Below are positions 11,533-45,836 of a stretch of DNA of 64,000 bases, one piece after another. Source of the stretch: a virus. A program made the position numbers and the translations under genes. Each line of letters begins with the position of its first letter. Positions within the stretch are counted from its first letter, which is position 1. The stretch spans positions 15,837-79,836 of IMG/VR virus record IMGVR_UViG_3300045988_052707; one strand, given 5' to 3'. The notes under the pieces were generated by a model that ran no database searches, had not been told where the DNA came from, and saw only the letters and a list, made by a program, of their open reading frames with translations.

Positions 11533-11895
11533 TCACTTCTTCCAGGATATGAATAGATATTCTCCAACTAAGCCAGGATATCCTTCTTTATCAATAACCT
11601 TAACGAAGAATCGTTTATCTTCGTAGTATTTAAGGATTTCATCCTTGGCTTTAGCTACATCATCATTCAAATCCATAACAAGACTAAAGTAATTGTTCTC
11701 ACTCTTAGCCTTAATAAGTTGGTCAGTAGTATCTAGAAACCTCTTAATTAGAGTTTCTTGTGTCACCACTTCATTGTAAGTGGCAACTGAATATGCCTCG
11801 TCCGCATTCATAGATTCACCTTCCAACAATTTACCAAAATTAAAGATATTCTTCATAATAACTAATAATTGGTTTGTGGTCCAGACGAGATTCAA
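11533..11895 (-). CDS. hypothetical protein
   Basis: 120-aa ORF. Confidence 0.5.
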   Translation of the reverse strand: MNLVWTTNQLLVIMKNIFNFGKLLEGESMNADEAYSVATYNEVVTQETLIKRFLDTTDQLIKAKSENNYFSLVMDLNDDVAKAKDEILKYYEDKRFFVKVIDKEGYPGLVGEYLFISWKK

Positions 11896-11948
11896 ACTCG
11901 TGACCTTCCCTTTAGGAGAGGGACGCTCTATTCTACTGAGCTACTAGA
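11875..11948 (-). tRNA. tRNA-Arg (anticodon CCT)
   Basis: Manual fold: acceptor GGTCTAG/CTGGACC, D-arm GCTC/GAGC, anticodon arm TCCCT-CTCCTAA-AGGGA, T-arm ACGAG-TTTGAAT-CTCGT. Confidence 0.6.
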
Positions 11949-11958
11949 CCCCTTTACG

Positions 11959-12291
11959 TTATACGTTAATACTCCCAGTATGTCTGCCTTGTACATTACC
12001 ACCAACCTCAATACTGTTAGCTTCTATAGAACCTCCCACATTGCCTTTAACTTTAACACTATTACCATGTACAGTAAATGCGTCTCCGTCAATATCACAT
12101 GTGTTGCAGTTAAGCTCTTTTACATTACCAGTAAAACTGATGTGTACACTATCCTTATTAGTTTCAGATATTAACTTACCATTTACGTAAATTTTACGCT
12201 TGATTTGTGAGATAGTGATATTGTCCTCTTCAATGTCATAGGACTCATTATCAATAAATAACTTATTCATGATTCTTTTTATCCAGTTCAT
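11959..12291 (-). CDS. bactofilin-like beta-helical repeat protein
   Basis: Repeated G-N-V/G-G-S-I motifs (VHGNSVKVKGNVGGSIEANSIEVGGNVQG). Confidence 0.4.
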   Translation of the reverse strand: MNWIKRIMNKLFIDNESYDIEEDNITISQIKRKIYVNGKLISETNKDSVHISFTGNVKELNCNTCDIDGDAFTVHGNSVKVKGNVGGSIEANSIEVGGNVQGRHTGSINV

Positions 12292-12890
12292 CTTCCTTCG
12301 TAATACTTAATCAGTTTATCAAATGCTTCAATCCTAGCATTGTGACCCTTCTCGTCATCGGGAGTCCACCAAAATGCCTTACCATACCTGTCTTTAGGTG
12401 CACCTAAGAACTCTCTATTGAACTCTGGAAACATAGCAACTACATCACGTTCATCATAGATGTTGATTCCTCTTTCTGTGCCAGCCATAGCATGTTCAAT
12501 GCAGAAACACATTCCCCAGTATTCTGAATGGTCTTCAAACAGCTTCTTAGCTTTTAGTAAGATAGTGTGCTTATTGATTCTTTCTGTGTACCAATGGATG
12601 AGTTTATCGAAGGCTATAAGCCTGTGTTTCTTCTCATCTACGGGCCACCAAAAGACCAGCCTAGCTACTTCTTCTCGTTTGACATTACCTCCTAGAAACT
12701 CTGGGTTAAACTCCGGAATTAATGCCACTAATTCATTATAAGAGGGAGGTATTCCTTCTTTAAACACTCCGTTGAATGCTTGCTTCATATAGTGGCACAT
12801 ACCACCATTCTTATCACTACCTGGCTTTGTATCTTTATCGTACAAGTCTTTAGCAGTCTTTAATCTTTTAATAATTTCTAAGTTAGTCAT
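12288..12890 (-). CDS. protein with internal tandem duplication (two ~45-aa repeats)
   Basis: FNPEFLGGNVKREEVARLVFWWPVDEKKHRLIAFDKLIHWY vs FNREFLGAPKDRYGKAFWWTPDDEKGHNARIEAFDKLIKYY. Confidence 0.55.
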   Translation of the reverse strand: MTNLEIIKRLKTAKDLYDKDTKPGSDKNGGMCHYMKQAFNGVFKEGIPPSYNELVALIPEFNPEFLGGNVKREEVARLVFWWPVDEKKHRLIAFDKLIHWYTERINKHTILLKAKKLFEDHSEYWGMCFCIEHAMAGTERGINIYDERDVVAMFPEFNREFLGAPKDRYGKAFWWTPDDEKGHNARIEAFDKLIKYYEGR

Positions 12891-12910
12891 CTCTTTCCTT
12901 ATTAAGTTAG

Positions 12911-12982
12911 TAGTCCCAGGCAGAGTCGAACTGCCATTTCAGGTTCCGTAGACCAGCGTTCTATCCATTGAACTATGGGACC
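12911..12982 (-). tRNA. tRNA-Arg (anticodon ACG)
   Basis: Acceptor GGTCCCA/TGGGACT, D-arm GTTC/GAAC, anticodon loop CTACGGA (one T-T mismatch in stem), T-arm GGCAG-TTCGACT-CTGCC. Confidence 0.55.
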
Positions 12983-13129
12983 ATACAGGAAGCAATTCCG
13001 ATTTAACGGCCGCCCTTGCCAGTATCACGTACTGGGCTTTTCACGTGGACGGTCTGTCAGCATAACTCACAGTATTACTTACATGCTTCCTTTAAAGTTT
13101 AGCCTCTTCCAGCGCAAGAGCACTTATAG

Positions 13130-13396
13130 TCACTCTTCGCCATAGTACATCAAGTATAGCACCTGCTGACGCAAACCATATCTACGTGTAACCACGTTAG
13201 CTTCCGCTCTCCTGGAAAGCGCAGCATTGATACTCCTCTTGAGTTTATCGGCATCAAATAGCAAACCAGTTACTCCTACTAATCCATTAGGCTCATCAGC
13301 GCAGATGTAATCTACTGCTTCAAAGAGCTGGGCTTTAGTTTCAGAACTGTTCACCTTCTGCCATTTCTTTATTTCTTTCTCAAAGTCCATAATCAA
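13130..13396 (-). CDS. hypothetical protein
   Basis: 88-aa ORF. Confidence 0.45.
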   Translation of the reverse strand: MIMDFEKEIKKWQKVNSSETKAQLFEAVDYICADEPNGLVGVTGLLFDADKLKRSINAALSRRAEANVVTRRYGLRQQVLYLMYYGEE

Positions 13397-13767
13397 TTAA
13401 GTGCTTCAAGTTCTTTAGCTAATTCTTCCAGAGATTTGCCTTCGAGTTCAGCGTCTTGTTTCTTAGCCATAAGGTCAAGAATCTTCTGACGCTTAGCTTT
13501 CTTCTCACTTTCAAGTAGACGGTCTTCCTGTTCTTGCAACTTAACATCAATAATGTGTTTTGCAATATTGAATTTCAGTTCAAGTTCGGTAGTGTCCTTA
13601 GTCCGGGTTTTGATGAAGCTTTCAGTTTTAGACTCTTGCAATTTCTTGTTAAGAGCAATTGCAATATTGTCAAGTTGAATTAAGGGTAAATCCCACAAGT
13701 CTTCAACAGAAAGAACTCCACGTTGCGTGTTAAAACGCAATTTCATTCTAGATGCTTTCTCAAACAT
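13393..13767 (-). CDS. hypothetical coiled-coil protein
   Basis: 124-aa ORF, K/E-rich heptad-like C-terminus. Confidence 0.45.
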   Translation of the reverse strand: MFEKASRMKLRFNTQRGVLSVEDLWDLPLIQLDNIAIALNKKLQESKTESFIKTRTKDTTELELKFNIAKHIIDVKLQEQEDRLLESEKKAKRQKILDLMAKKQDAELEGKSLEELAKELEALN

Positions 13768-13769
13768 AA

Positions 13770-16720: not shown

Positions 16721-16724
16721 AATC

Positions 16725-17711: not shown

Positions 17712-18185
17712 TTATCCTATTTCGTTACTAGCATTATAAGCAAGCTTGTCGGCTTCCTTATTATGTTCATCACTTGCGTGACCTTTACACCACTCAACAG
17801 ACACTACTTTATGCCTGTTCACAGCCTTATCAAGACGTTCCCACAAATCAGTATTGGCTTTCCTCTTCCACCCTTTAGTAAGAGTTCCTACAATATACAT
17901 AGAATCTGTTACTATTGTAATTTCAGAAGGTTCCTTTATGGATTCCAGGGCAACTATGACAGCCATTTGCTCCATTCGCTGATTGGTGCTGTTCTTATAC
18001 ATCTTACTGTATTGGAATATCTTCTTGTCCTCCTCTAAAATGACAAAGCCTATTCCCCCTTGATTTCTCGCAGGAGAATAGGCACCATCACAGTATATTC
18101 TGTACTTATGCGTCGGCATTAGGATTCTCAACAAAATCCTCATCATCCTCATCTTCTTCGGTTTCGGATATGACATCCTCATCAA
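17712..18185 (-). CDS. rnhA: ribonuclease H (RNase HI family); likely starts at internal Met
   Basis: IYCDGAYSP..NQGGIGFVI, MEQMAVIVALE, TDSMYIV, WCKGHASDEHNKEADKLA match RNase H catalytic motifs. Confidence 0.7.
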   Translation of the reverse strand: MMRMSYPKPKKMRMMRILLRILMPTHKYRIYCDGAYSPARNQGGIGFVILEEDKKIFQYSKMYKNSTNQRMEQMAVIVALESIKEPSEITIVTDSMYIVGTLTKGWKRKANTDLWERLDKAVNRHKVVSVEWCKGHASDEHNKEADKLAYNASNEIG

Positions 18186-18857: not shown

Positions 18858-18941
18858 GAGCGGCTGTCGGGAATCGAACCCAATCTATCACTTGTGCGCA
18901 TACTAAAATTAGTGATGTGCCCTCCTTTACACTACAACCGC
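18858..18941 (-). tRNA. atypical tRNA-like gene (about 18 nt enclosed by the anticodon-stem-like TCACT/AGTGA helix); anticodon undetermined
   Basis: Good acceptor (GCGGTTG/CAGCCGC), D-arm (GTGT/GCAC) and T-arm (TTGGG-TTCGATT-CCCGA), but the anticodon-stem-like helix TCACT/AGTGA encloses 18 nt instead of 7. Confidence 0.4.
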
Positions 18942-21053: not shown

Positions 21054-21256
21054 ATTAATTAGATATTGTAGGTGATGTTAACTTGTCAATTAGATTCTTC
21101 ATTGCTTCTTCACCAGCAGCAAAACCTTCAGAATATCCAATATTATATGCCTTCTCTATAGATACAGCAACAGCTTCCATGACGCTATTGCCCTCATACT
21201 GTTTCTTTAATTCTTCTAATAGTTCTTTCATAAATCCTCCTTCCTTTAATTATTAG

Positions 21257-21342
21257 TAGCTTGAGTGGGATTCGAACCCACACGTCCATTTCTGGACACC
21301 AGAGCTTAAATCTGGGGCGTCTACCAATTTCGCCATCAAGCC
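21257..21342 (-). tRNA. tRNA-Leu (anticodon TAA), type II with long variable arm
   Basis: Acceptor GGCTTGA/TCAAGCT, anticodon arm CCAGA-TTTAAGC-TCTGG, variable arm TGTCCAGAAATGGACGT, T-arm GTGGG-TTCGAAT-CCCAC. Confidence 0.6.
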
Positions 21343-21531: not shown

Positions 21532-21997
21532 CTCTTACTAAGTCTATCCAATTAATTAGGATATGATACAACCACCTCATAATACGTAATCGCAATAAGT
21601 GTCAACAAAATCCTTAGCTTCTTTTAAACCACATTTAGCAGATTCTTTTACATGCTTAACTGCTTGCAGTTTGGAACCAGTCTGTACAAACTGTTTCATC
21701 TTAAAGAAGTCTTCACATGACAAATCAATTGTATTATTCCAACGCTTCCTGTATGCAAGCATTGCATCACTATACTCTTGAGGATGTTCTGTCCAGGTAA
21801 TTTGTTAGTCTAATATAACTGTACAAGTTCCATCAAGTATATCATATTCTCTAGATTCTACGGTGAATTTACCAGCTTCTAACACTACTATATCAGTAGG
21901 AAATGGAATCATCTCTGATGAGATTGATACTTCCTCTATTGTCTTATCATCTTTTACAAATTTTACAAACATAATCTTTAAGTATTAATTAATAACG

Positions 21998-22071
21998 TAG
22001 CGAGAAGGTGACTCGAACACCCAACCTTGCGATTATGAGTCGCACGCTCTAGCCAGTTGAGCTATCTCGCC
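21998..22071 (-). tRNA. tRNA-Met (anticodon CAT), copy 1 of 3 CAT tRNAs
   Basis: Acceptor GGCGAGA/TCTCGCT, D-arm GCTC-AACTGGCTA-GAGC, anticodon arm TGCGA-CTCATAA-TCGCA, T-loop TTCGAGT. Confidence 0.6.
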
Positions 22072-23610: not shown

Positions 23611-23789
23611 CCTCTGTCAGTAATTTAGTTGCTTTATCCATTCCTAACTCGTAAGCTTCAGCAATTAATACTGCTACGCTTGCTATTGAAAGCTTACCAC
23701 CGTTGTCCTCTGCTACGTTAGCTGCATTTTCAAGCAGCTCACTTAAAGTTTCTACCATAATTAAATACATTTAATAGTTAATAATCTAG

Positions 23790-23871
23790 TAGGGTAGGTG
23801 AGACTCGAACTCACACGCCCGAAGACACTTGGGCCTAAACCAAGCCTGTCTGCCAATTCCAGCACTACCCC
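23790..23871 (-). tRNA. tRNA-Leu (anticodon TAG), type II
   Basis: Acceptor GGGGTAG/CTACCCT, anticodon arm CTTGG-TTTAGGC-CCAAG, long variable arm, T-arm GTGAG-TTCGAGT-CTCAC. Confidence 0.6.
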
Positions 23872-24141: not shown

Positions 24142-25599
24142 TTATTTGTTGTCCTTCTTCTCCGTAGAATAGTCCTTACGGTCGAGTTCCCACTGATACT
24201 CACACATCTGAGTGATTGCTTCAAGCTTCTCTGTACCCAGAACGAGTTTGAGAGCATTTACCAATCTTTCAGCCGGAGTTTCCACAACAGCTTTCTTGGA
24301 TGCGAGTCCAAGTTGACGTTGATAAGATTCAACGCTAGCTTTGATATGGAACGATGTTACATGGGTTTCTTCTGTAAAGATGAGTTTGGATTTGGTTGAT
24401 TCAACGATTTCAGCCATAAATGCCGGAGCAATTTCAGCTTCTTGAATGTAGTTACATACTTCACTCAAATCATCGTCGATTGTATATCCTTCTTCAGCGG
24501 TGAAGGTAGAACGGATGAATTTCTCCGCAGTTTCAGCGTCCAGGCAGTCCATAGTAATCACAGAACCAATTCTCTTACCTCTCAAGAAGGTAGGTTCAAT
24601 CAATTCAATGTGATTAGTAGTGAACAAGGTGATTACGTTCATATCTTTGGTATCACCACCGTCCAGAGTATTCAGGATGTCTTGCATTGCAGCATCTCTG
24701 TTACCTCTAGTTACTTGGTCAATATCTTCAACAAATACGACAACACCATGACCCGAACGGTCAACAACTTTACACATGCGCAGAGTTTCTGCAAGAAGAG
24801 AAGGATTCTTCAAATACACGAATGACCAGCCGTTCGTTACAGCATCTTTAGCCAGCTTAAATGCCAGCAAGGTCTTACCTGTACCATATTTACCTTCCAG
24901 CAAACAACCGTACTTCAATGGAATACCTTTAGCCAGACATTTCTCTGGATACAAGATTCTTGAACGTAGCGGTTGCAATTCAAATTCAGTCTTCTTAGAA
25001 AGAACCATGAATTGTTTCTCAATGCCGGCAAGCGTCATGATAGTAGGTTCAGACAGATTGCTGATTTCCAGTGCTTGATTCTTGTAGATAGATTCTGATG
25101 CCAACAGCTCTTTAGTTCTGTCAACAATATCATCAATCAATGACTGATATTTGAACTGGCATTGTCCTTTAATAAGGAGTAAATGACGGTCATTGTCATA
25201 GTTGATGTTGATTTCAGAATCTTCTCCCAATTCTTCAAGGCTGATTTTACCAAACGGAACCTTGGTACGAGAACCGTCTGCCAGAACAACGTCTACGGTA
25301 TCAATATTGCTGTTTCCAGAAGGACTGTTATCCTCCTTACTAACGGCAGAACCGAAGATTTCATTGATTGCTCTGTTCAACTGATATACACCGTCCGGTT
25401 TCCAACAAAGCAGCGAGTATTTGAAACTTGCCATTTTCTTGGACTGTTTGATTTCACCTTCGATGAATCCCAGAGCATCAGCATACTTCACATTGCTTTG
25501 GAGCACTTCAATCATTCTCTGTTTCTGAGTTTCCTCGTACTTGTTAACTCTCTGCTTAATAGCAGCTGTAGTTCCTTGCGGAATAATGTTCTTTGCCAT
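24142..25599 (-). CDS. AAA+ family ATPase (classic AAA, CDC48/FtsH-like P-loop)
   Basis: Walker A GKYGTGKTLLAFKLAK, Walker B VVVFVEDID, followed by sensor region; 250-aa unique N-domain. Confidence 0.7.
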   Translation of the reverse strand: MAKNIIPQGTTAAIKQRVNKYEETQKQRMIEVLQSNVKYADALGFIEGEIKQSKKMASFKYSLLCWKPDGVYQLNRAINEIFGSAVSKEDNSPSGNSNIDTVDVVLADGSRTKVPFGKISLEELGEDSEININYDNDRHLLLIKGQCQFKYQSLIDDIVDRTKELLASESIYKNQALEISNLSEPTIMTLAGIEKQFMVLSKKTEFELQPLRSRILYPEKCLAKGIPLKYGCLLEGKYGTGKTLLAFKLAKDAVTNGWSFVYLKNPSLLAETLRMCKVVDRSGHGVVVFVEDIDQVTRGNRDAAMQDILNTLDGGDTKDMNVITLFTTNHIELIEPTFLRGKRIGSVITMDCLDAETAEKFIRSTFTAEEGYTIDDDLSEVCNYIQEAEIAPAFMAEIVESTKSKLIFTEETHVTSFHIKASVESYQRQLGLASKKAVVETPAERLVNALKLVLGTEKLEAITQMCEYQWELDRKDYSTEKKDNK

Positions 25600-25875: not shown

Positions 25876-25887
25876 CTATTAACTGTG

Positions 25888-25961
25888 TGGGCCCGGCCGG
25901 ACTTGAACCGACAACCTCCTGATTATGAGTCAGTTTCTCTAACCGATTGAGATACGGGCCC
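25888..25961 (-). tRNA. tRNA-Met/fMet/Ile2 (anticodon CAT), copy 2
   Basis: Acceptor GGGCCCG/CGGGCCC, anticodon loop CTCATAA, T-arm GTCGG-TTCAAGT-CCGGC. Confidence 0.55.
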
Positions 25962-26056
25962 CGAACGCCCATGTTTACTCACAATTAACAGTTCTCAAAG
26001 AGTAGTGTTGTTAGTGACTTCATGATAAATTCTATTTTAACTGAAATAATTAGTAG

Positions 26057-26128
26057 TTGGGCTACCAGGATTCGAACCTGGGCTACAAGAGCCAAAACCT
26101 TGTGTGACTACCACTACACCATAGCCCA
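26057..26128 (-). tRNA. tRNA-Gln (anticodon TTG)
   Basis: Acceptor TGGGCTA/TAGCCCA, anticodon arm CAAGG-TTTTGGC-TCTTG, T-arm CCAGG-TTCGAAT-CCTGG. Confidence 0.55.
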
Positions 26129-26149: not shown

Positions 26150-27217
26150 CTAAACTAACTTATCGAATATCATGGGCTGTATCGACATCCATAGATTCGC
26201 TAGCATTTCTTGCTCTGCGTCAGATGCCTCATCCCAATGTGATACGTACAATTTCTCCGTTCGTTCATTCCTATAAGGAACTTTAAATGAACGGTTAATG
26301 CGTACACTGTGTGCGAATAGGTCTTTGTCGAAATCAATAGCCCTAAGCGTCTTCTGGAAATCGTTGAACTTATTATTAGGGTCATCGACATCCCTAACAG
26401 ACATTCCAGAAGGAAATGGGCCATTACCATGCCTTGTTATATAAGGACGAGTTACATAACAAGTTTGGATTTCTTTACGTATACCTGCTTTCCGCAACAG
26501 CTCGTAAGCGTTTTGTGAAGTTGTATTAGACGGAGTACAATAAGGCATTATGCCGAATCTTTGGTCAAGCAATATTCCCTGTGAACCTTCAAACACTAGG
26601 TTATCATAATTCAACAAGCAATCTTCATTAACCGTACCTGTATGTAAGAAATAAGCATGTGCTAACCTACACCAGTTGTCTAGGTCTATCGAAGGATATT
26701 TACTAGACATGTTGTAATAGTTATCCACTATGGCATTTAGTTTCTCACGCAGTATGTAAGGATTCATACAATCTACAACTGTTAAGCTGTATCCTGCCTT
26801 AACTCGGTCCAAACAAGCTTTAAACCCTGTACCTACAGTACCATGTCGTAAGTTCTCTTCGTTATTAACTTGGGAATAGACATCGAAGGGAATTACAACT
26901 TGGCAGTGAGGGTGATACTGAACAATGGGACGAACTCCCATTTTAGCTAAGTCTGCACCCTCTAACATAGAGGTAATTGGGTCTACAGTACAGTATTCGG
27001 ACCAATACGTCGGCACTCCAAGTAAGGTTCCGCTGCCAAAGTTACTAAAGGTGTGCATCATGTCTCCATGCTTTACAGTATGTCCTACTTGATGTCCACC
27101 ACTAAACCTGACTACTAACACAGACTCTCGCTTACCTATGTACTTGTTACATAAGTTGTGAACTGTCTGTCCCTTACCTTCGTCTCCAAAGAATGTTCCT
27201 AATACAATACTAATCAT
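26150..27217 (-). CDS. adenylosuccinate synthetase (PurA) family enzyme, short form; candidate PurZ-like (2-aminoadenine/Z-base pathway) enzyme
   Basis: N-terminal P-loop IVLGTFFGDEGKGQ (PurA GDEGKGK), VVRFSGGHQVGHT (PurA RYQGGHNAGHT), GTVGTGF, FEGSQGILLD...PSNTTS, TRHGNGPFP; only 355 aa and lacks the C-terminal guanine-specificity region of canonical PurA (about 430 aa). Confidence 0.6.
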   Translation of the reverse strand: MISIVLGTFFGDEGKGQTVHNLCNKYIGKRESVLVVRFSGGHQVGHTVKHGDMMHTFSNFGSGTLLGVPTYWSEYCTVDPITSMLEGADLAKMGVRPIVQYHPHCQVVIPFDVYSQVNNEENLRHGTVGTGFKACLDRVKAGYSLTVVDCMNPYILREKLNAIVDNYYNMSSKYPSIDLDNWCRLAHAYFLHTGTVNEDCLLNYDNLVFEGSQGILLDQRFGIMPYCTPSNTTSQNAYELLRKAGIRKEIQTCYVTRPYITRHGNGPFPSGMSVRDVDDPNNKFNDFQKTLRAIDFDKDLFAHSVRINRSFKVPYRNERTEKLYVSHWDEASDAEQEMLANLWMSIQPMIFDKLV

Positions 27218-28540: not shown

Positions 28541-28627
28541 TTACACTTACATTTAACATGTTAAATTCAATAAGCATCTCTGTGTGGTAATTTATAATCT
28601 AACTGTAATCATCTAGGATTACAATCG

Positions 28628-28700
28628 AGCCACCTTAGGGACTCGAACCCTAAACAGCCGCATTACAAGTGCGGTACTCTACCAATTGAGTTAAGGTGGC
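28628..28700 (-). tRNA. tRNA-Thr (anticodon TGT)
   Basis: Acceptor GCCACCT/AGGTGGC, anticodon arm CCGCA-CTTGTAA-TGCGG, T-loop TTCGAGT. Confidence 0.6.
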
Positions 28701-28758
28701 ATAAACAGGAGACGATGTTACCAAGTGTGCTGACATCTCCTTCGTAAATCAAAGAAAG

Positions 28759-28830
28759 CGGTGCATACGGGATTCAAACCCGTGGTCTCCTCATAGACAG
28801 TGAGGCATCCTATCACTGAACGAATGCACC
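28759..28830 (-). tRNA. tRNA-Asp (anticodon GTC)
   Basis: Acceptor GGTGCAT/ATGCACC, anticodon arm CCTCA-CTGTCTA-TGAGG, T-arm ACGGG-TTTGAAT-CCCGT. Confidence 0.5.
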
Positions 28831-29135
28831 ATGAAGCTTGCTTAACCTACCCTCTAAACCTATGCTTGGACTTGCAATCAGTTATTCAGGTATTGTCCCT
28901 TCCCGCTAGCTGAGTCATTCTCTTACTGTAACCGTGTGTCCAACTCACAATTACTATTCAGATGTGCCAAATGGGACATGGCAATTCATAGAAAGTGGGT
29001 GCTAGCCGTTTCTATCCCACCATTGCGTACTACAGTGCTAGCTACCGTCTAAGCTCCTATCCCTTACGTCGCCTTAGAGTGTACATGATTATTATTGCCT
29101 AACCAGTTACCTGATTGGAAGGATTATGTACGAGG

Positions 29136-29207
29136 TACTGCCAACGGGATTCGAACCCGTATTTTCAGTGTGAGAGACTGATTACCTAACCCTTAGTAGA
29201 TGGCAGT
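29136..29207 (-). tRNA. tRNA-Glu (anticodon CTC), tentative
   Basis: Acceptor ACTGCCA/TGGCAGT, anticodon arm TCAGT-CTCTCAC-ACTGA, T-arm ACGGG-TTCGAAT-CCCGT; D-arm weak. Confidence 0.45.
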
Positions 29208-38695: not shown

Positions 38696-38767
38696 TGCCC
38701 CATGTTGGACTCGAACCAACGCCATACAAGTTTAGAATTTGCTCTTCTACCACTGAAGTAATGGGGC
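38696..38767 (-). tRNA. suppressor-type tRNA, anticodon CTA (would decode amber UAG)
   Basis: Acceptor GCCCCAT/ATGGGGC, D-arm CTTC-AGTGGTA-GAAG, anticodon arm GCAAA-TTCTAAA-CTTGT (U33, A37; one A-C mismatch at loop-closing pair), T-arm GTTGG-TTCGAGT-CCAAC; 4 nt from the preceding CAT tRNA. Confidence 0.55.
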
Positions 38768-38804
38768 GACAGAGGGTTTTACGAGATTACCCACAACTCA
38801 TCAA

Positions 38805-39707: not shown

Positions 39708-39796
39708 GATAGTTAATTGTTAATAAGTTAATAAATAAATTGCCTTAATTAATAATCAACTATCTTATGGTGGCTTGTAAGTAATCTACCGCATAA

Positions 39797-40093
39797 TCAT
39801 TTCCCTTTAATTTGTTTACACATGTTAATAAACTCATCATCCGATTCACATATAATCGGATTCGTTTCCTTGAGATACATCTCCAGATAGGCTTCTTTAG
39901 ACAAATCGTCCACGTCATCCGGATACACACCATGTACATCATATGACATATGAGAACCCCAGCAACTAAGCCAATCAGCATCCTCAAATGTAGTACATAT
40001 ACACACACTTAACCCAGCATCCTCTAGTTTCTTACGAAGTTCTGGAGTATTCTTCTTAATAAGACAGTGTTCACTCATGGATTTAATACACAT
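39797..40093 (-). CDS. hypothetical protein
   Basis: 98-aa ORF (the overlapping 39760..40008 ORF in another frame is less protein-like). Confidence 0.4.
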   Translation of the reverse strand: MCIKSMSEHCLIKKNTPELRKKLEDAGLSVCICTTFEDADWLSCWGSHMSYDVHGVYPDDVDDLSKEAYLEMYLKETNPIICESDDEFINMCKQIKGK

Positions 40094-40413
40094 AAACCAC
40101 CTTTCTCGGAATCTCTAAGCACATACTTAATACCTGGAATACCAGGACCTGATACCTTATAAATGGTTAGTTCGTTAATAAATTCATACTGCACTCTGTT
40201 GATTTTATAATCTCCATTAGTAGCAGCAGACTCATTAATTGATGCTTTACTTGTGGTTGCAAATAATGCCAAGAAGGTAAATACTCCACATAATCCACCA
40301 ATAACACCTGCCTTAAATGATGTCTCTTTCATAATCTCATCTATTATTAATAATGAGCGGGATAACAGAATCGAACTGTCATCTTCAGCTTGGAAGGCTG
40401 TTATAATAACCAT
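40075..40413 (-). CDS. membrane-anchored hypothetical protein
   Basis: TM segment VIGGLCGVFTFLALFATT; 3' end abuts tRNA-Gly so true stop/start may differ. Confidence 0.35.
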   Translation of the reverse strand: MVIITAFQAEDDSSILLSRSLLIIDEIMKETSFKAGVIGGLCGVFTFLALFATTSKASINESAATNGDYKINRVQYEFINELTIYKVSGPGIPGIKYVLRDSEKGGLCVLNP

Positions 40414-40427
40414 TATACGAATCCCGC
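40356..40427 (-). tRNA. tRNA-Gly (anticodon TCC)
   Basis: Acceptor GCGGGAT/ATCCCGC, anticodon loop CTTCCAA, T-arm GACAG-TTCGATT-CTGTT. Confidence 0.55.
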
Positions 40428-40514
40428 AGTTTACTTCTACTATTCTCTCGAACCATAGAAGGGTTTGTCGAGTTTGACCTCAACAGATATTGTATTTAAT
40501 TATCGCAGTGTGAG

Positions 40515-40597
40515 TGGGCATGGTAGGATTCGAACCTACTCAGCCATAGGCAACGGTTTTACAGACCGCCCCAGCTCTCCAACTCTGGCGCATACCC
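40515..40597 (-). tRNA. tRNA-Tyr (anticodon GTA), type II
   Basis: Acceptor GGGTATG/CATGCCC, anticodon arm GCGGT-CTGTAAA-ACCGT, long variable arm TGCCTATGGCTGAG, T-arm GTAGG-TTCGAAT-CCTAC. Confidence 0.6.
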
Positions 40598-40847
40598 GAA
40601 TCACACAATCCATATTAACTGTGAATTGTGAGTGCAAAGGTAATGAATCTTTCCCACATATAAAAGTTAATATGTATTAAATACGATAGAAGTTTGCTCG
40701 ATATTAAACTAAGCTCACATATTCTCTCGAACCGATGAGCTTAGTAGTTATTCAACAATTGCAGATACTTTAACTCGTAATAATGACTATGAGTCGAGAT
40801 AGAAATGACACTGCATATGTTGAAAGAATCATATTAATAAAATGGTG

Positions 40848-40921
40848 TAGAGATAACCAGATTCGAACTGATGTTCTTCTAAAGATTGACTTTAGCTGTT
40901 CTACCACTGAACTATATCTCT
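40848..40921 (-). ncRNA. tRNA-like element with non-canonical anticodon arm (loop GTCAATC; CAA?) about 160 nt downstream of Ro60-like gene; tRNA or Y-RNA-like module
   Basis: Acceptor AGAGATA/TATCTCT, D-arm GTTC-AGTGGTA-GAAC, T-arm ATCAG-TTCGAAT-CTGGT all fine; anticodon region CTAAA-GTCAATC-TTTAG has pyrimidine at position 37 and a type-I scaffold inconsistent with Leu. Confidence 0.4.
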
Positions 40922-41084
40922 ATCCAGTCCCTATGGAATCATCCAATAAATTCCCACCTAGTATCACTAGATATGCACAAAGATTACTATACCAAATATG
41001 CGCTCTTCTCCATGCATAATGAAATCTATCTTCTATCCAATCAGAACATTAATTCAACTATTAAATAAATGGTGCGCGAAATAC

Positions 41085-42779
41085 TTAGGCCTTCACAGGC
41101 TTCTTCTGCACGCTTGCATTCTTCTTGACAACATCCTTCTCTAGAATCATCATATTAAGCAACTCTTGATTCATAGCATGCTTAAAAATGTCTCTGGTGG
41201 TTTTAGGCACCTGGAACCTCTTCTCTCCAGTAATAAATGAGGATGTTGAATTATTAAGTCCATTTACTAAGAAGCAATTTGACACTCCTGGAACCAAAGC
41301 TACATTAGGTCTTCCTTTATATGCTAAAGGAACTCTCCAAATAATAACTTTGAACGCCCTTACAAATTCCTTACTGAAATTTGCTTTAAGCAATCTCTGC
41401 TTAAATTCCACGAATGCTTGGTTGTTCAACTTGGTAAAATATGTATGGTTAGTAATTACCACACAACCTCTAGGGAACTCTCCTTCATCTACACCATAAC
41501 CTTCTTTCATTTTACATAACATTTCTGCTATATTAACAATAGAAGGATTCTGGCATAATGCTTCTTCTTTGTCAGATTTCCATTTCTCAATGACATTCTG
41601 ACCTTTGAACTTACGTAGAACCATGTTATCTTCTAACACGGCATAGGAGTTTTTGAATATTGTAGGAAGTAGTTCAGAGTGATATAAAGCATATGCTTTA
41701 CCCAAACTGTAAGCAGATGTTTCGCTATTCTCTATCTTACCATTAGCAGAATGGCTTATATCTCTTACTACCAACAACGGAGCTACTCTATTGCGTTTAG
41801 CATTATCAACGAATACGTTGAAACTTGCATTAATAGAAGTTTCCATAAATTCTGGAATCTCTTCGGCAATTTTATCCAATCCATATGGTTTGAATAAAGT
41901 ATGTAGAAATCCGCTATTAGAGGGCTTCTTACGGTTCTTTAACCAGTTCTGATACTTCTCTTTAAGACCTTGATGTTTGAGGAATTTAGAGCCTACTAGC
42001 TGTGCCAGCGCCTTTCCAGTAACAGTGTCAAAATCAATTTCCAAGAATTTCTTTTGACTGATTAACTGCTGCCATTGGGCAGCTTTCCCGCTATTCTTCA
42101 TCTTCCTATATTTACGATAGGTTGAATAGTCTCCTTCATCCTTAGGTTTACCATAAAGGCCTTCCGCCAAGAATTTGGCTACTATGTTACGTGCTTTTGC
42201 CTCATCTGTCTTACATGCAACACTGGAACGAACACGAGGAAGATACTTCTTTACTAAATCACATGTCTGACCGTTGGCAAGACCTGCGAATATGACTTTC
42301 TTGAAGAAGTCCCAATCCAATCTGTGCTTAAAGCCATGGAGTTGAACATCTAAAGCCATCATAGTAATGAAATCTTTCCAGCATCCAGCTGCTGCAAAAT
42401 AAGCAATGTTGGCATGGAATGTGGGTTTGTGATAGATTGCCAACCACAACATTCTCATTATACCTTCATTCTTCAAACCTTCTCCTTGCTGTGTATCAAG
42501 TTGTGTAACTCCTTCCGGGGTAGTTATTCTACATTTACGAGTTATCATTCTCGTATATGCAGTAAACTTGGTACATAGTAATGGATTAGCTTTCCATAAA
42601 GGATACATATCTTTAGCCACTTGCACGTAGGTACGTGGCTGAAGACATTTCTTAAGATTAACAAACTGGTCTATGAATAACTGATTATTATCCACAAACT
42701 TGGGTTTATTCTCATCCCGCCTTTGACGTGCGGCATTAGGGTAAGGCCTCCTTGGCCTTTGTGCTCCTTTCATTTCCAT
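41085..42779 (-). CDS. Ro60/TROVE-domain-like RNA-binding protein with C-terminal vWA/MIDAS region (Rsr-like)
   Basis: C-terminal block aligns with Ro60 vWA: LLVVRDISHSANG (DxSxS MIDAS), SYAVLEDNMV ~ SYVVAFSDEMV, GCVVITNHTYF ~ ADVFIVFTDNETF; 564 aa, similar to Ro60/Rsr size. Confidence 0.5.
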   Translation of the reverse strand: MEMKGAQRPRRPYPNAARQRRDENKPKFVDNNQLFIDQFVNLKKCLQPRTYVQVAKDMYPLWKANPLLCTKFTAYTRMITRKCRITTPEGVTQLDTQQGEGLKNEGIMRMLWLAIYHKPTFHANIAYFAAAGCWKDFITMMALDVQLHGFKHRLDWDFFKKVIFAGLANGQTCDLVKKYLPRVRSSVACKTDEAKARNIVAKFLAEGLYGKPKDEGDYSTYRKYRKMKNSGKAAQWQQLISQKKFLEIDFDTVTGKALAQLVGSKFLKHQGLKEKYQNWLKNRKKPSNSGFLHTLFKPYGLDKIAEEIPEFMETSINASFNVFVDNAKRNRVAPLLVVRDISHSANGKIENSETSAYSLGKAYALYHSELLPTIFKNSYAVLEDNMVLRKFKGQNVIEKWKSDKEEALCQNPSIVNIAEMLCKMKEGYGVDEGEFPRGCVVITNHTYFTKLNNQAFVEFKQRLLKANFSKEFVRAFKVIIWRVPLAYKGRPNVALVPGVSNCFLVNGLNNSTSSFITGEKRFQVPKTTRDIFKHAMNQELLNMMILEKDVVKKNASVQKKPVKA

Positions 42780-43160
42780 CTCTTTGTTTAAATTTATTGT
42801 TATGAGAGTCTTTCTTTATTCTAAACAATAAACAAGCGGCATTACGGCAATTGGACATGCGTTAATCCGCTCGCCACTTACAGACCGTAATGCACACTTG
42901 ACCAGGCAGGAAAGAGGTTTGCTTGGTGACCTATCTGCATGCTGATTATATAATGCAGACCGTGTAGATTCTCTCTTACACAATATCTATAGTAGATTTG
43001 CACTACTGTTTTCTGATGCTTAATCAGGCGAACTCTTACTGTTCGAATAGATACAGGTTTCAACTCTTTGATATAGCCTTTTAAGTCATAGACACACTCC
43101 GGAGTATGTCTACTGGTTCTTCAGACCAAGTTTTGCTACCACCATTCGTCAATAGTGGAT

Positions 43161-43856: not shown

Positions 43857-44350
43857 ACTATCTGTTCAACTGTTATTAATTTAGTGATTCTGTAACCTCT
43901 TGATTTCAGGAATTTGATTGCTTCCATTTCAGCTTGTGTAATAGGAATCAGATGTTTGTCTTCTTCCGCTTCTGTAACAGCTTCCATTTCAGCTTGTGGC
44001 TTAGGTTTGGGAGGTGCTACATAAGTGCCAGCTTTAATAGCCATTCTCTTAGCATATGCATCTCTCTGTATCTTAGCCATTTCTTTCCTACTGATAGTTA
44101 TCAATTCAATGACTCTAGTCTTATACAAAGGGCCATGTTCTTTCCACATAAATCCTTTAGTATAGATAGCACCGTCAGGTTCAATCACTCCCTGCTTACG
44201 CAAAACAGCCATGAAGTTCTCTGGCCTTGGGAAGCCATTCTTCTTTAAATCCTTGACTACATCTGTAATCTTAAAAGGCCCAGGATTCATTGCCTTTACC
44301 GTGTTAAAAATCCGAACGATGTCATCGTCGGATATTGACCTCTTTCCCAT
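43853..44350 (-). CDS. hypothetical protein with Pro/Lys-rich linker
   Basis: 165-aa ORF, overlaps downstream gene by 4 nt. Confidence 0.5.
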   Translation of the reverse strand: MGKRSISDDDIVRIFNTVKAMNPGPFKITDVVKDLKKNGFPRPENFMAVLRKQGVIEPDGAIYTKGFMWKEHGPLYKTRVIELITISRKEMAKIQRDAYAKRMAIKAGTYVAPPKPKPQAEMEAVTEAEEDKHLIPITQAEMEAIKFLKSRGYRITKLITVEQIV

Positions 44351-44396
44351 AATTTCAATAACTTTTAGTGAAACAATTACTCTTTATATATTCTAA

Positions 44397-44650
44397 TTCG
44401 AGATTTACACAGATGTACACGCATTCGTTTAATCTCGGACAGAATCCAATTACGTCTGCATTGATGTAACCATGCAATTACATCCTCGTCAAATAATAAT
44501 TCTTGACCACAGTAGTATGTGCCACTGTAGTAAGTATCAAGCTTTGGTCTTAATATGTCATGAGGACTATCAGTAACTATGTATTGATAATCCTCACCCT
44601 TATTAATTTCAGCTTCTTTGACTCTTTACGAAGTTTCTTTAATAGCTTTA
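44397..44650 (-). pseudogene. disrupted small ORF (two frames: MKVKLLKKLRKESKKLKLIRVRIINT* then ...YIVTDSPHDILRPKLDTYYSGTYYCGQELLFDEDVIAWLHQCRRNWILSEIKRMRVHLCK)
   Basis: Protein-like translation continues in a different frame after an in-frame stop; no start codon in the longer frame. Confidence 0.3.
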
Positions 44651-44694
44651 CCTTCATTTTAGTAATTCCAATTAAGCGTTAATAATAGTGGACC

Positions 44695-44725
44695 ATCGCG
44701 GACTCGAACCGCGGTCTTCACAACT
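44695..44725 (-). other. tRNA 3'-fragment (perfect T-arm CGCGG-TTCGAGT-CCGCG + acceptor 3' strand ATGGTCC-A) without detectable 5' half
   Basis: No complementary GGACCAT or D-arm within 400 nt upstream; lies at the 3' end of a ~900-nt ORF-poor, hairpin-rich region. Confidence 0.35.
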
Positions 44726-45334
44726 CTAAATAACAAGATTACGTGTGTCTCTATTTTATTACATCAGCTGTTGAGTTCAGCATGTAGATAGTTTTACTAA
44801 GAAGCTGAGTGTTAATTCACCAATTACGTCTCCTCGTAAGGCTACGACTTAGTTGTTCACAAACTACCAAACTGGGCTTGACCGAACGGTCGCTCCACCA
44901 CTCCATTTACGTTGGAGAACGTCTATTTGTAACCCATAGCTAGGTAGTGGAGATTTCAGCTTACTAACTCTTAGAGTGTTCTGTTAATGACGTTTGTCAA
45001 TCCTCTTCTGTTTCTAGGTCTCTCCAATTAACCCGACTTAATCAATATAAATACTGATAAGCCAGCAGCTTAGGCTGCCATTCTTACTTCAGTGTTTCCA
45101 CTTAAAATTGTGCATCATTATTAAAGAGTTGGTGCCAACTCTACACGTCTTGCTACCCAGTCATCATGAATCAATTCCATGTATGGCCCATAAATGGCAT
45201 GATTATACTCTCATGCCAGGAGTCATTATGAATTTTAAAAATTTAGGGAGCACAAAATCACCAGTATCCTCCTGTGCCACATTGAGTGGCGTACCCATTG
45301 AGGACTTAGTAACTTATGAGCTATTTTGTTCCAT

Positions 45335-45688
45335 TTAAAATGGTAAGTTTCCTTCATGTTTCATCCAGCTATAAACTACAATTTCATAATCTGGGAAATC
45401 GTTAGCAAGTTTAACACAACTGTCAAACGATAACTCTGTTATGCATATAAGAGGGTAATCATTGTCAAGCCATTCTCTAATTACATCCTTATCAGGAATA
45501 TGCTCGTCCAATGACCATTTAAGCTCACGTTCAAGTCTTTCACGTACTGTATTCAATTTAATATGGTCATGCGTTCCATATATAACATTTAATATGTAAT
45601 ACAATAAATGGCTATTGAACTTATCAACATCGCTAATAAGAATATGCCTCTTGGCATTCCTTAAAGAATTAACTGCATTCTGATTCAT
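45335..45688 (-). CDS. hypothetical protein
   Basis: 117-aa ORF. Confidence 0.5.
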   Translation of the reverse strand: MNQNAVNSLRNAKRHILISDVDKFNSHLLYYILNVIYGTHDHIKLNTVRERLERELKWSLDEHIPDKDVIREWLDNDYPLICITELSFDSCVKLANDFPDYEIVVYSWMKHEGNLPF

Positions 45689-45755
45689 ACACTTATTAAT
45701 TAAAAGCCCAAGTGTGTTTCACAACATGACTGGGGCAAGCCTAAACTATACAAAA

Positions 45756-45836
45756 CTTTAAAATGATTGGGAGAGGATGGGAGATTCGAACTCCCACTAC
45801 TAGTTGTAACTAGCCTTCTACCATTAAACTAATCCT
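45756..45836 (-). tRNA. tRNA with encoded CCA; anticodon ambiguous (6-nt loop TTACAA between palindromic CTAG stems: TAC/Val or ACA)
   Basis: Acceptor AGAGGAT/ATCCTCT + discriminator C + CCA, T-arm GGGAG-TTCGAAT-CTCCC; Val is the only amino acid otherwise missing from the array. Confidence 0.45.

Follow-up and report, generated by a model that had tools for sequence, protein, structure and literature searches.

tRNA Gene Blocks of Zeta crAss-Like Phages

The zeta_9 group of crAss-like phages was described as having genomes of 176-186 kb, code 11, a Sup CTA tRNA and Bacteroides xylanisolvens as the predicted host (Yutin et al., 2021, Nat Commun, PMC7886860, Supplementary Data 1). Clade 8 of the Zeta phages was reported to encode 17-29 tRNAs and a CTA suppressor, with no suppression (Int J Mol Sci, 2025, PMC12386605, Table 1), and its subgroup with a GC content of 36.7-36.9% encodes 27-29 tRNAs. 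These papers give isotypes and counts only, and a tmRNA, a tRNA-like gene with an 18-nt loop, a 6-nt-loop allele and the absence of Val are unmentioned in them (PMC7886860; PMC12386605).

The window analyzed here, a stretch of 64,000 nucleotides of viral DNA, most likely comes from a very common Zeta crAss-like phage infecting Bacteroides of the human gut, and carries its tRNA gene block. The tRNA order from 45838 to 11876 is the same, tRNA for tRNA, as in the published zeta_9 lists, the nearest named relatives of TerL and DnaB are crAss-like phages, and related contigs measure 171-186 kb and come from the human gut, which bears out the large Bacteroidetes phage suggested in the initial annotation. 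Judging from the match in gene order and genome features, not from phylogeny, the phage probably belongs to zeta_9, which would correspond to clade 8, the subgroup with 27-29 tRNAs being the nearest fit. The window shares with these blocks the CTA suppressor without recoding, the lack of Val, the GC content of about 37%, the genome size (164-188 kb) and the predicted human-gut Bacteroides host (PMC7886860; PMC12386605), and no substantial difference from them was seen. The tRNA gene set is real and conserved, but not new, having already been tabulated for zeta_9 crAss-like phages.

Composition of the Block

ARAGORN made 30 calls, 29 of which are tRNA genes on the minus strand (11876-45838; Table 1), the strand carrying the replication genes, with small ORFs interspersed. 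The initial annotation had given ~28 genes dispersed over 34 kb. Rfam RF00005 gave 27 tRNA matches at the gathering score (43-76.7 bits); permissive filters added Ser-GCT and the tRNA-like gene at 18859-18941 (gathering score 29). The 30th ARAGORN call (30819-30895, plus strand, "Arg-TCG") is spurious, being an antisense image of Ser-GCT with several non-standard pairs and no RF00005 match. So large a set on one strand cannot have arisen by chance. Also located in the block are a tmRNA, a RAGATH-34 RNA, a gene for a Ro60-like protein and the tRNA-like gene, whose loop is oversized.

Table 1. Features of the tRNA gene block (window coordinates).
Feature	Coordinates	Strand	Evidence
tRNA-Arg(CCT)	11876..11950	-	ARAGORN; Rfam 64.9 bits
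tRNA-Arg(ACG)	12910..12982	-	ARAGORN; Rfam 60.8 bits
tRNA-like gene	18859..18941	-	Rfam tRNA 38.5 bits, permissive filters only
tRNA-Leu(TAA), type II	21256..21342	-	ARAGORN; Rfam 55.2 bits
tRNA-Met(CAT), elongator	21997..22071	-	ARAGORN; Rfam 65.7 bits; syntenic "Met" in zeta_9 lists
tRNA-Leu(TAG), type II	23789..23871	-	ARAGORN only; "Leu" at same position in published lists
tRNA CAT, probable tRNA-Ile2 (lysidine)	25887..25961	-	ARAGORN; Rfam 66.9 bits; syntenic "Ile2" in zeta_9 lists
tRNA-Gln(TTG)	26056..26128	-	ARAGORN; Rfam 60.5 bits
tRNA-Thr(TGT)	28627..28700	-	ARAGORN; Rfam 68 bits
tRNA-Asp(GTC), T at position 37	28758..28830	-	ARAGORN; Rfam 55.9 bits
tRNA-Glu(CTC), A1:U72	29134..29207	-	ARAGORN; Rfam 59.1 bits
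tRNA-Glu(TTC), A1:U72, T at position 37	30413..30486	-	ARAGORN; Rfam 58.2 bits
tRNA-Ser(GCT), type II	30834..30922	-	ARAGORN; Rfam 53.8 bits (permissive filters)
tRNA-Phe(GAA)	33535..33607	-	ARAGORN; Rfam 67.9 bits
tRNA-His(GTG), encoded G-1 (33980) opposite C73	33906..33980	-	ARAGORN; Rfam 59.7 bits; sequence
tRNA-Ala(TGC), G3:U70	35295..35367	-	ARAGORN; Rfam 64.2 bits
tRNA-Arg(TCT)	35872..35945	-	ARAGORN; Rfam 64.9 bits
tRNA-Ser(TGA), type II	37041..37127	-	ARAGORN; Rfam 57.6 bits
tRNA-Trp(CCA)	37137..37210	-	ARAGORN; Rfam 63.8 bits
tRNA-Asn(GTT)	37324..37396	-	ARAGORN; Rfam 76.7 bits
tRNA-Lys(TTT)	37821..37893	-	ARAGORN; Rfam 52.8 bits
tRNA-Cys(GCA)	37976..38048	-	ARAGORN; Rfam 54.4 bits
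tRNA-Pro(TGG)	38272..38346	-	ARAGORN; Rfam 64.8 bits
tRNA-Ile(GAT)	38448..38521	-	ARAGORN; Rfam 69.3 bits
tRNA CAT, initiator-like	38622..38693	-	ARAGORN; Rfam 57.9 bits; syntenic "fMet" in zeta_9 lists
Amber suppressor tRNA(CTA), A31xC39 mismatch	38695..38767	-	ARAGORN; Rfam 62.7 bits; "Sup CTA" in published lists
tRNA-Gly(TCC)	40355..40427	-	ARAGORN; Rfam 58.5 bits
tRNA-Tyr(GTA), type II	40514..40597	-	ARAGORN; Rfam 43 bits
tRNA anticodon CAA, loop GT[CAA]TC with T37, A1:U72	40847..40921	-	ARAGORN; Rfam 52.5 bits; "Undet" in published lists
Ro60/TROVE-like + vWA protein gene, 564 aa	41085..42779	-	Inside tRNA block
RAGATH-34 structured RNA	43050..43158	-	Rfam RF03103 113.7 bits (gathering score 60.7)
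tmRNA	44686..45189	-	Rfam RF00023 66.6 bits (gathering score 47); sequence
tRNA with 6-nt anticodon loop TTACAA, encoded CCA	45768..45838	-	ARAGORN; Rfam 48.6 bits; orthologue alignment

The anticodons cover 19 amino acids (Arg with three tRNAs; Leu, Glu and Ser with two each; Gln, Thr, Asp, Phe, His, Ala, Trp, Asn, Lys, Cys, Pro, Ile GAT, Gly and Tyr; and three CAT tRNAs), and beyond this set there are the CTA tRNA, a type-I tRNA with anticodon CAA and the tRNA with a 6-nt anticodon loop. No tRNA-Val was found among the window tRNA genes with ARAGORN and Rfam, and no relative of the same lineage carries one, in agreement with the initial annotation, in which 19 amino acids were recovered and Val was not securely assigned. 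The His tRNA with G-1, the CTA suppressor and three CAT tRNAs (initiator, elongator and Ile-lysidine candidates) had also been recognized there, and all are present. This split of the CAT trio agrees with the tRNAscan-SE labels fMet, Ile2 and Met at the syntenic positions (PMC7886860, Supplementary Data 1). It also agrees with the sequences of two of the genes: the one at 38622 shows A11:U24 and, at the foot of its anticodon stem, three G:C pairs, and the acceptor stem of the one at 25887 has C4:G69 and C5:G68. Position 1:72 of the gene at 38622 is a U:A pair, not a mismatch, and an extra G follows position 7. The elongator gene shows 37 compensated pair cells among its variants. The CAA tRNA has a short variable arm, which is not Leu-like, and is identical at 34 loci, with one further variant carrying a compensated stem pair.

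Codon Coverage and Role in Translation

Every covered four-codon box has a U34 tRNA only, except Arg CGN, which is read by the ACG tRNA; two-codon boxes have G34 or U34 tRNAs, and Ile2, initiator and elongator Met are added to these. Because U34 tRNAs stand alone in the four-codon boxes even though NNT codons are the most used there (GCT 48%, ACT 51%, GGT 42%), the pattern is best explained as a minimal set with one tRNA per codon box, not as a top-up of a few rare codons. Assuming that U34 reads NNU and NNC, essentially every sense codon except GUN (Val) could be read without the host pool. Because Val makes up 6.6% of codons and has no phage tRNA, the phage would still depend on at least one host tRNA, so that the strong translational autonomy proposed initially goes too far.

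The block is most likely a nearly self-sufficient decoding and RNA-quality-control module, and on balance we favor, as the explanation of the whole, a Zeta crAss-like decoding module that keeps phage translation running. Its RNAs would be transcribed along with the early and middle genes, the tRNAs excised by host RNase P and RNase Z and charged by host synthetases, and CCA added by the host enzyme except at 45768, the only gene to encode it. Ribosomes that stall would be released by the tmRNA, and RNA that is damaged or misfolded would be dealt with by the Ro60-like protein. Phage translation could be sustained in this way against a poor match of the host tRNAs, their depletion or their cleavage by anticodon-nuclease defenses. 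Large tRNA sets that are thought to lessen translational dependence on the host also occur in T5, Vibrio phage KVP40, cluster C mycobacteriophages such as Bxz1 and huge phages from metagenomes; they number tens of genes, a tmRNA is frequently present as well, and cluster C mycobacteriophages also carry a Ro-like protein. The window differs from these phages in lineage and host phylum, and its tRNA genes are scattered across 34 kb, with small ORFs between them, instead of being packed. In L204, a more distant Zeta phage, 18 tRNAs are packed in 4.5 kb.

The classical explanation of phage tRNAs is compensation for codon usage, by which this phage (37% GC) would favor A/T-ending codons over its Bacteroides host and its tRNAs would top up only those that are scarce in the host. 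The AT-rich window (GC 0.33-0.405) and the predominance of U34 anticodons, which read A-ending codons, are what this explanation would predict, but we consider it unlikely, though it is the most serious competitor: the set spans almost all codon boxes, the NNT codons that lead the four-codon boxes are unread by U34 under standard wobble, no phage tRNA serves the Val codons GTA and GTT despite their abundance, and the tmRNA and Ro60-like gene would be left unexplained.

Conservation of the tRNA Genes

Among equal-length orthologue variants, the changed stem-pair cells were compensated on both sides in 218 cases and on one side in 55, and were broken in 31. Because 273 of these 304 pairs are still paired in relatives, the genes are, on this comparative evidence, functional rather than pseudogenes. 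The CTA suppressor shows 12 compensated pair cells in diverged relatives. The large tRNA set proved real, and rejection of most members as pseudogenes, named at the outset as the outcome that would count against it, did not occur with ARAGORN.

It is highly improbable that the block is dead weight, i.e., a decaying or selfish collection of pseudogenes and homing endonuclease landing sites with no role in translation. Two members are malformed (18-nt and 6-nt loops), some tRNA genes of relatives are split by insertions of 450-820 nt with HNH-type ORFs, and an HNH-like ORF lies between tRNA-His and tRNA-Ala of the window; against this, 27 genes score 43-77 bits with the tRNA model, the stem pairs are maintained as described above, and the order and content of the block are kept in relatives whose neighboring proteins are only 44-69% identical.

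In the first malformed member (18859-18941), the acceptor, D and T arms are normal, and an ATCACT/AGTGAT stem encloses exactly 18 nt in place of the 7-nt anticodon loop, as had been read from the sequence initially (18858-18941). ARAGORN calls this gene with the intron option only, as "Val-CAC with a 13-nt intron," leaving A33. Twenty-two close relatives carry it unchanged, and relatives of ~62% identity lack it. The second, the odd tRNA initially placed at 45756-45836, is present at 45768-45838. The anticodon loop of its orthologues in 52 related contigs is TTGCGAA in 46, TTACAA in five and TTGTTA in one, so that, judging from this alignment, most strains have Arg(GCG) with a normal 7-nt loop at this gene and the window holds a minority allele with a 6-nt loop. 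The Val-TAC identity once considered for it was rejected on the grounds of these 46 Arg-GCG orthologues and the absence of tRNA-Val from relatives of the same lineage.

Anticodon Arms and Anticodon Nucleases

It has been proposed that phage tRNAs resist host anticodon nucleases (van den Berg et al., 2023, eLife, PMC10264068; see also Azam et al., 2024, PMC11555353). The window and its relatives resemble such tRNAs in having T37 (Asp, Glu-TTC and the CAA tRNA), C33 alleles (Cys, Asn and Sup tRNAs of relatives) and a fast-changing anticodon arm, with anticodon-stem columns varying at 15% vs 5% elsewhere. These non-canonical loops and the rapid change would fit that hypothesis, as a lead only. 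The anticodon stem may merely be the least constrained part of the tRNA, so that little weight can be put on its greater variability. The window yielded no RNA-repair enzyme, and we know of no anticodon nuclease of the host.

The CTA Suppressor

The CTA suppressor is not used for recoding in this lineage, because a close relative has, immediately to the right of the window, a terminase gene (762 aa) and a portal gene (at least 734 aa) that are both intact in code 11, and TAG terminates 11 of the 90 window ORFs. These 11 ORFs lack a back-up stop close by (median 21 codons vs 8 in controls), and the long window ORFs gained no length when in-frame TAG was read as sense. Code 15 phages (other Zeta and Delta crAss-like phages, Lak) also encode a tRNA(CTA); in this lineage, by contrast, there is no in-frame TAG in terminase, portal or window genes, and TAG is an ordinary terminator. 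Although the CTA tRNA is well formed and conserved and TAG is recoded in other Zeta crAss-like clades, these observations, together with the reported lack of suppression in clade 8 and zeta_9 (PMC12386605; PMC7886860), leave almost no room for the idea that it reads in-frame TAG in late genes (code 15) with the rest of the set backing the switch. It may serve instead for readthrough of host genes, or be a retained precursor of recoding.

tmRNA, RAGATH-34, and the Ro60-Like Gene

The tmRNA, the RAGATH-34 RNA and the Ro60-like gene inside the block were absent from the initial annotation. The tmRNA, which ARAGORN did not call, looks functional: the acceptor is GGGCCAT/ATGGTCC with G3:U70, the T arm is present, and the tag frame (GGA..GCC TAA) would encode GNTEVRMAA. 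The pseudoknot region contains a 148-nt insertion. In relatives, the tag alleles stay in frame and still end in RMAA at the C terminus.

A Ro60-like fold is supported for the product of 41085..42779, which has no detectable sequence similarity to TROVE proteins. RAGATH-34 lies directly upstream of this gene, and is found at the same position in L204 (80.5 bits). The arrangement resembles the Ro60-Y RNA systems of bacteria and phages (Chen et al., 2014, PMC4201824; Ro60 of Thermus phage phiLo, PMC12135203) in that a protein with a Ro60-like fold adjoins a conserved structured RNA, here among tRNA genes, and differs from them in that the adjoining RNA is RAGATH-34, not a recognized Y RNA, and in the lack of TROVE similarity. 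No YrlA-like element was found in the window itself with Rfam under permissive filters, whereas the related phage L204 has a permuted, YrlA-like tRNA mimic. The order of tmRNA, RAGATH-34, Ro60-like gene and tRNA array recurs in a relative in which the Ro60-like protein shares only 44% identity with that of the window.

tRNA Gene Complement

The window appears to encode a nearly complete decoding set, and this is the best-supported reading of its function. Aided by a tmRNA and a Ro60-like protein, such a set would free phage translation from most of its need for host tRNAs, Val excepted. ARAGORN called 30 tRNA genes in the window, 29 of them on the minus strand within 11876-45838. Rfam RF00005 gave 27 tRNA matches at the gathering score (43-76.7 bits), and permissive Rfam filters recovered two extra, Ser-GCT (53.8 bits) and a tRNA-like gene with an 18-nt loop (38.5 bits), while Leu-TAG was called by ARAGORN only. 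A plus-strand 'Arg-TCG' call was discarded as the antisense image of tRNA-Ser(GCT), with several non-standard pairs and no RF00005 match. The window anticodons cover 19 amino acids, with Val absent, and the set has four odd members: one tRNA with anticodon CTA, one of 75 nt with anticodon CAA that lacks a long variable arm, one whose anticodon loop has 6 nt, and the 18-nt-loop element. In 25 of the 29 genes the anticodon loop has 7 nt, with U33 and a purine at 37, the exceptions being Asp, Glu-TTC and the CAA tRNA (all T37), and the 6-nt-loop gene. G-1 of tRNA-His is encoded, as a G at 33980 that can pair with C73. The description of about 28 dispersed genes in the initial annotation was thus accurate, odd members included, and was borne out by the ARAGORN and Rfam calls, the G-1 of tRNA-His and the 18-nt loop.

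Features of the window and of related phage loci (prefix L, loci fetched for comparison; other positions are those of the window)
Feature	Position	Strand	Remarks
Ferritin-like protein	7968-8609	-	
RNase H	17712-18185	-	
18-nt-loop tRNA-like element	18859-18941	-	
tRNA-Met (CAT), elongator	21997-22071	-	
tRNA-Leu (TAG)	23789-23871	-	
AAA ATPase	24142-25599	-	
tRNA-Ile2 (CAT), probable	25887-25961	-	
Adenylosuccinate-synthetase homologue	26150-27217	-	355 aa
tRNA-Asp	28758-28830	-	T37
tRNA-Glu (TTC)	30413-30486	-	T37
'Arg-TCG', discarded call	30819-30895	+	
SPFH/Band 7 protein	31010-32971	-	653 aa
HNH-like ORF	34574-35206	-	between tRNA-His and tRNA-Ala
Gap between tRNA-Cys and tRNA-Lys	37894-37975		
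tRNA (CAT), initiator candidate	38622-38693	-	
CTA suppressor tRNA	38695-38767	-	
CAA tRNA	40847-40921	-	T37
Ro60-like protein	41085-42779	-	564 aa; matches PHROG 'RNA-binding protein'
RAGATH-34 RNA			113.7 bits; directly upstream of Ro60-like gene; adjoins this gene in two diverged phages
tmRNA	44686-45189	-	Rfam RF00023, 66.6 bits (gathering score 47); missed by ARAGORN
6-nt-loop tRNA	45768-45838	-	
Only plus-strand ORF block	52000-56400	+	GC 33%
ORF, 180 aa	60739-61281	-	
ORF, 163 aa	61294-61785	-	
TerL and portal	L060 1-4715	opposite to window	about 5-9 kb past the right end of the window
Permuted tRNA-like element	L204 11826-11894		between tRNA-Cys and tRNA-Lys
Split tRNA genes	L113 4555-5458; L091 1191-2003, 11186-11891; L083 4701-5562; L101, L104, L105, L108		

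Three tRNAs carry the CAT anticodon. In the initiator candidate, the anticodon stem ends in three G:C pairs at its base and A11:U24 is present, which are hallmarks of bacterial initiators (E. coli tRNA-fMet), but two features depart from the canonical form: U1 pairs with A72, where a C1xA72 mismatch would be usual, and an additional G follows position 7. The second, the Ile2 candidate, has C4:G69 and C5:G68, which the lysidine synthetase TilS of E. coli uses as determinants. In the published list for the subgroup zeta_9, the syntenic tRNAs are labelled fMet, Ile2 and Met for the genes at 38622, 25887 and 21997, respectively (PMC7886860), and the earlier division into initiator, Ile-lysidine and elongator candidates is reasonable, since published labels and sequence features concur.

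Identity of the Phage

The DnaB-like protein of the window has an exact copy in 3729 blocks of a public assembly collection, most of the contigs concerned being 50-200 kb long, and a metagenome scan returned related human-gut contigs of 171,154 to 186,005 bp. Among GenBank phages the tRNA region has no close relative at the DNA level, and exact look-up of the 878-aa protein found no record. The nearest named relatives of DnaB are crAss-like phages at ~30% identity, as are those of TerL from L060, a near-identical relative (~30% identity, E about 1e-55); this TerL matches phrog_6681 and the portal PHROG 6547. TerL and portal follow just to the right of the window, on the opposite strand, so its right end is near the boundary of the replication/tRNA arm and the structural arm.

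Zeta phages have the largest genomes among crAss-like phages (145-192 kb), with many tRNAs and suppressor tRNAs, and Supplementary Data 1 of the same study gives the tRNAscan-SE calls per genome in order (Yutin et al., 2021; PMC7886860). In the direction from 45838 to 11876, the window tRNA order is exactly that of the lists of OGTB01000008, OLRX01000007, OJPU01000022, and OWII01000011. The zeta_9 genomes are 176-186 kb, use code 11, carry Sup CTA, and have Bacteroides xylanisolvens as the predicted host (PMC7886860), and clade 8 of a later Zeta study, which is the same group, comprises genomes of 156-188 kb with 17-29 tRNAs, polA, and a predicted host that is mostly Bacteroides (PMC12386605). 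The clade 8 genomes at GC 36.7-36.9%, of which 7 of 8 have 27-29 tRNAs (PMC12386605), are the closest match to the window (GC 37.4%). The window would accordingly belong to a zeta_9/clade 8 Zeta crAss-like phage, a placement made from gene order and genome features, not from phylogeny. Because the window order equals the published zeta_9 lists, the tRNA complement of this phage group is already catalogued, and the set itself adds nothing to the published record. The tmRNA, the Ro60-like gene with RAGATH-34, the lineage-wide absence of tRNA-Val and the fast-changing anticodon arms may be worth following up; none of them is mentioned in PMC7886860 or PMC12386605.

Composition of the Set and Anticodon Arms

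Each covered four-codon box has a single U34 tRNA (TAG, TGA, TGG, TGT, TGC, and TCC), with the exception of Arg CGN (ACG), and the two-codon boxes have one G34 or U34 tRNA each; the additional members are Glu (CTC) and Arg (CCT), plus Ile2, the initiator, and the elongator Met. This looks like a minimal, general-purpose set, not a top-up for a few rare codons. Compensation for codon usage is a live alternative to which we give a clearly minor share of belief. In the four-codon boxes, NNT are the most used codons in window ORFs, and NNT is read by U34 only via extended wobble. In a single scan of genome contigs with the phage RNase H, all matches came from candidate-phyla and soil genomes, none from Bacteroides. 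Since this phage ranks among the commonest of the human gut, a near-self-sufficient decoding kit in it is relevant to the takeover of Bacteroides by crAss-like phages and to the ways in which these phages might withstand tRNA-targeting defences.

T37 occurs in the three window tRNAs named above, and C33 replaces the near-universal U33 in relatives, namely in the majority allele of Cys (16 loci), in an allele of Asn (3 loci), and in an allele of the suppressor tRNA (6 loci). When orthologues of at least 85% identity are compared, 15% of the columns in the anticodon stem are variable vs. 5% elsewhere. Phage tRNAs are proposed to evolve escape from host anticodon nucleases (PMC10264068). T37, C33, and the variable anticodon stems would agree with this idea, as a fit and not as proof.

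tmRNA, Ro60-Like Protein, and RAGATH-34

The tmRNA has tRNA-Ala-like ends, which form an acceptor stem carrying G3:U70, and it has a T arm. The tag frame encodes GNTEVRMAA before its stop codon, and the gene contains a 148-nt insertion. Three tag alleles occur in relatives (GNTEVRMAA, GNTTYRMAA, and AEIDYNRMAA), with the frame and the C-terminal RMAA kept. No SmpB match was found among the scanned window proteins, and presumably the host SmpB serves the phage tmRNA.

The 564-aa protein encoded nearby is described as Ro60-like on the basis of its predicted fold, a helical-repeat ring followed by a vWA domain, for which Foldseek ranked Ro60 at the top, weakly (E 0.019). The AF2 model required a 21-sequence alignment, the single-sequence model being useless (pLDDT 36). 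Pfam gave only DUF2828 (E=0.012) and no TROVE match, and no PDB match was obtained by single sequence or profile; homologues of the protein carry DUF2828 and DUF7788. From its adjacency to the gene, RAGATH-34 is a candidate Y RNA partner of the Ro60-like protein. The order tmRNA, RAGATH-34, Ro60-like gene, tRNA array recurs in L204, a more distant Zeta phage, whose protein is 44% identical. L204 also has a tRNA-like element in which the arms are permuted (in the order T arm, closed acceptor hairpin, D arm), and which scored 40.1 bits against Rfam YrlA (Y RNA-like), below the gathering score, with a Y-RNA-like fold. The Cys-Lys gap of the window was considered as a Y RNA and rejected, with only a 9-bp hairpin (z = -0.69).

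Absence of tRNA-Val and the Two Aberrant tRNA Genes

No tRNA-Val (NAC in a 7-nt loop) was called by ARAGORN in the window, nor was one found in ~140 loci of lineage relatives, and Val-TAC is present in more distant Zeta phages. Val makes up 6.6% of the codons in window ORFs (GTA 41%, GTT 35%), and the host is therefore needed for Val.

The gene at 45768-45838 had been proposed in the initial annotation as a possible Val-TAC, for which we find no support, its orthologues on 52 contigs being mostly Arg-GCG. The acceptor, D, and T arms of these orthologues are invariant, and the 3' half of the anticodon arm takes three forms: TTGCGAA (7 nt) on 46 contigs, read as Arg-GCG by ARAGORN and as 'Arg' in published lists; TTACAA (6 nt) on five contigs including the window, with no reading; and TTGTTA (6 nt) on a single contig, also with no reading, where the T stem has a compensated change as well. 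The window copy is thus a minority allele, the usual form of this gene being Arg-GCG. One published zeta_9 genome is listed with 'Undet, Undet' at the first two positions (PMC7886860), and this 'Undet' may be the 6-nt-loop allele.

In the 18-nt-loop element, covariance-model alignment places 18 nt where the 7-nt anticodon loop would be. ARAGORN called it only with introns allowed, as 'Val-CAC with a 13-nt intron', a reading that fits the missing amino acid and is suggestive but weak. Removal of the 13 nt leaves A at position 33, no bulge-helix-bulge motif is found at 37/38, the loop is open in the minimum-free-energy fold, and the extra 11-13 nt are far below the size of group I introns. Among close relatives, 22 carry an identical copy and another differs by one SNP, whereas the element is absent from relatives whose neighboring protein is ~62% identical. 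An intron-bearing tRNA-Val is given only a low probability, because U33 is missing, the insert is below the known size of bacterial introns, there is no bulge-helix-bulge, and the element is almost invariant in relatives. The element could be either a damaged tRNA of recent origin or a mimic of a tRNA.

A more far-reaching possibility is that this element and the 6-nt-loop alleles are, instead of tRNAs in decay, non-decoding tRNA mimics which, with the Ro60-like protein, RAGATH-34, and the tmRNA, would form an RNA-surveillance or decoy module. Such a module might titrate anticodon nucleases of the host, for instance, or provide adaptors resembling Y RNAs; in a narrower version, the 18-nt-loop element would be processed into the missing tRNA-Val. 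We regard this proposal as a long shot.

Conservation of the Cloverleafs

Decay of the block into pseudogenes was weighed with ~140 related loci taken from IMG/VR and metagenomes, in which equal-length orthologue variants were set against the ARAGORN structure of each window tRNA. There were 304 stem-pair cells differing from the window, counted as sequences and not as independent events, and in 218 of them both sides had changed and remained paired, in 55 one side had changed and remained paired, and 31 were broken. Leu-TAG holds 17 of the 31 broken cells, probably owing to a register shift. The suppressor tRNA has 12 compensated pair cells among its variants, and the CAA tRNA, with one compensated pair, is otherwise identical in 34 loci. 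Because most changed stem pairs stay paired in relatives, the window tRNAs are best regarded as working genes, not pseudogenes. Nor did the predictors reject most of the genes as pseudogenes, an outcome that the initial annotation had allowed for: ARAGORN retained 29 and Rfam 27 plus two. Pseudogene decay in this lineage is therefore very improbable.

Suppressor tRNA and Stop Codons

Recoding of TAG, TGA, or TAA was rejected from the ORF coverage under four stop sets, the list of in-frame TAG codons, and the late genes of a relative, and we consider it hardly credible in this lineage. Reading TAG or TGA as sense did not lengthen the long window ORFs, and in a close relative the terminase (762 aa) and the portal (at least 734 aa) are uninterrupted in the standard code. 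The 90 window ORF-derived genes end in TAA (53), TGA (26), and TAG (11). The CTA suppressor is thus present without a recoded genome, concurring with the literature on the clade, in which all genomes but one have the CTA suppressor and none shows suppression (PMC12386605). Downstream of the TAG-ended genes, the median distance to a TAA or TGA is 21 codons vs. 8 in controls, so that there is no nearby back-up stop. If active, the CTA suppressor would extend these 11 proteins as well as host proteins.

The 163- and 180-aa ORFs are in the same frame, separated by TAG and 12 nt, and an active CTA suppressor would fuse them (60739-61785). Programmed readthrough at this TAG was rejected in favor of an ordinary stop, spacer, and ATG, the junction being invariant in relatives.

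Insertions and Other Genes in the tRNA Block

In relatives, insertions of 450-820 nt with HNH-type endonuclease ORFs interrupt the Leu-TAA, Arg-TCT, Pro-TGG, Ser, and Ile2 genes within the anticodon loop or close to it. These insertions are probably mobile introns; they gave no Rfam Intron_gpI match at gathering, and some of the split-tRNA calls may be two paralogous tRNAs flanking an ORF. The window has a free-standing ORF with weak matches to HNH endonucleases (E about 1e-3), which fits with homing endonucleases spreading tRNA genes apart in this lineage. L204 has 18 tRNAs in 4.5 kb, whereas those of the window extend across 34 kb.

Enzymes of tRNA processing or RNA repair were not found among the window genes. 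Both GC and AT skew are inverted and GC is reduced in the only plus-strand ORF block, whose ORFs have no Pfam match. The adenylosuccinate-synthetase homologue, which is short, matches PHROG 1211, the family to which the PurZ-type enzyme of phages with 2-aminoadenine (Z-base) is assigned, and its best PDB sequence matches are ordinary adenylosuccinate synthetases (PurA).
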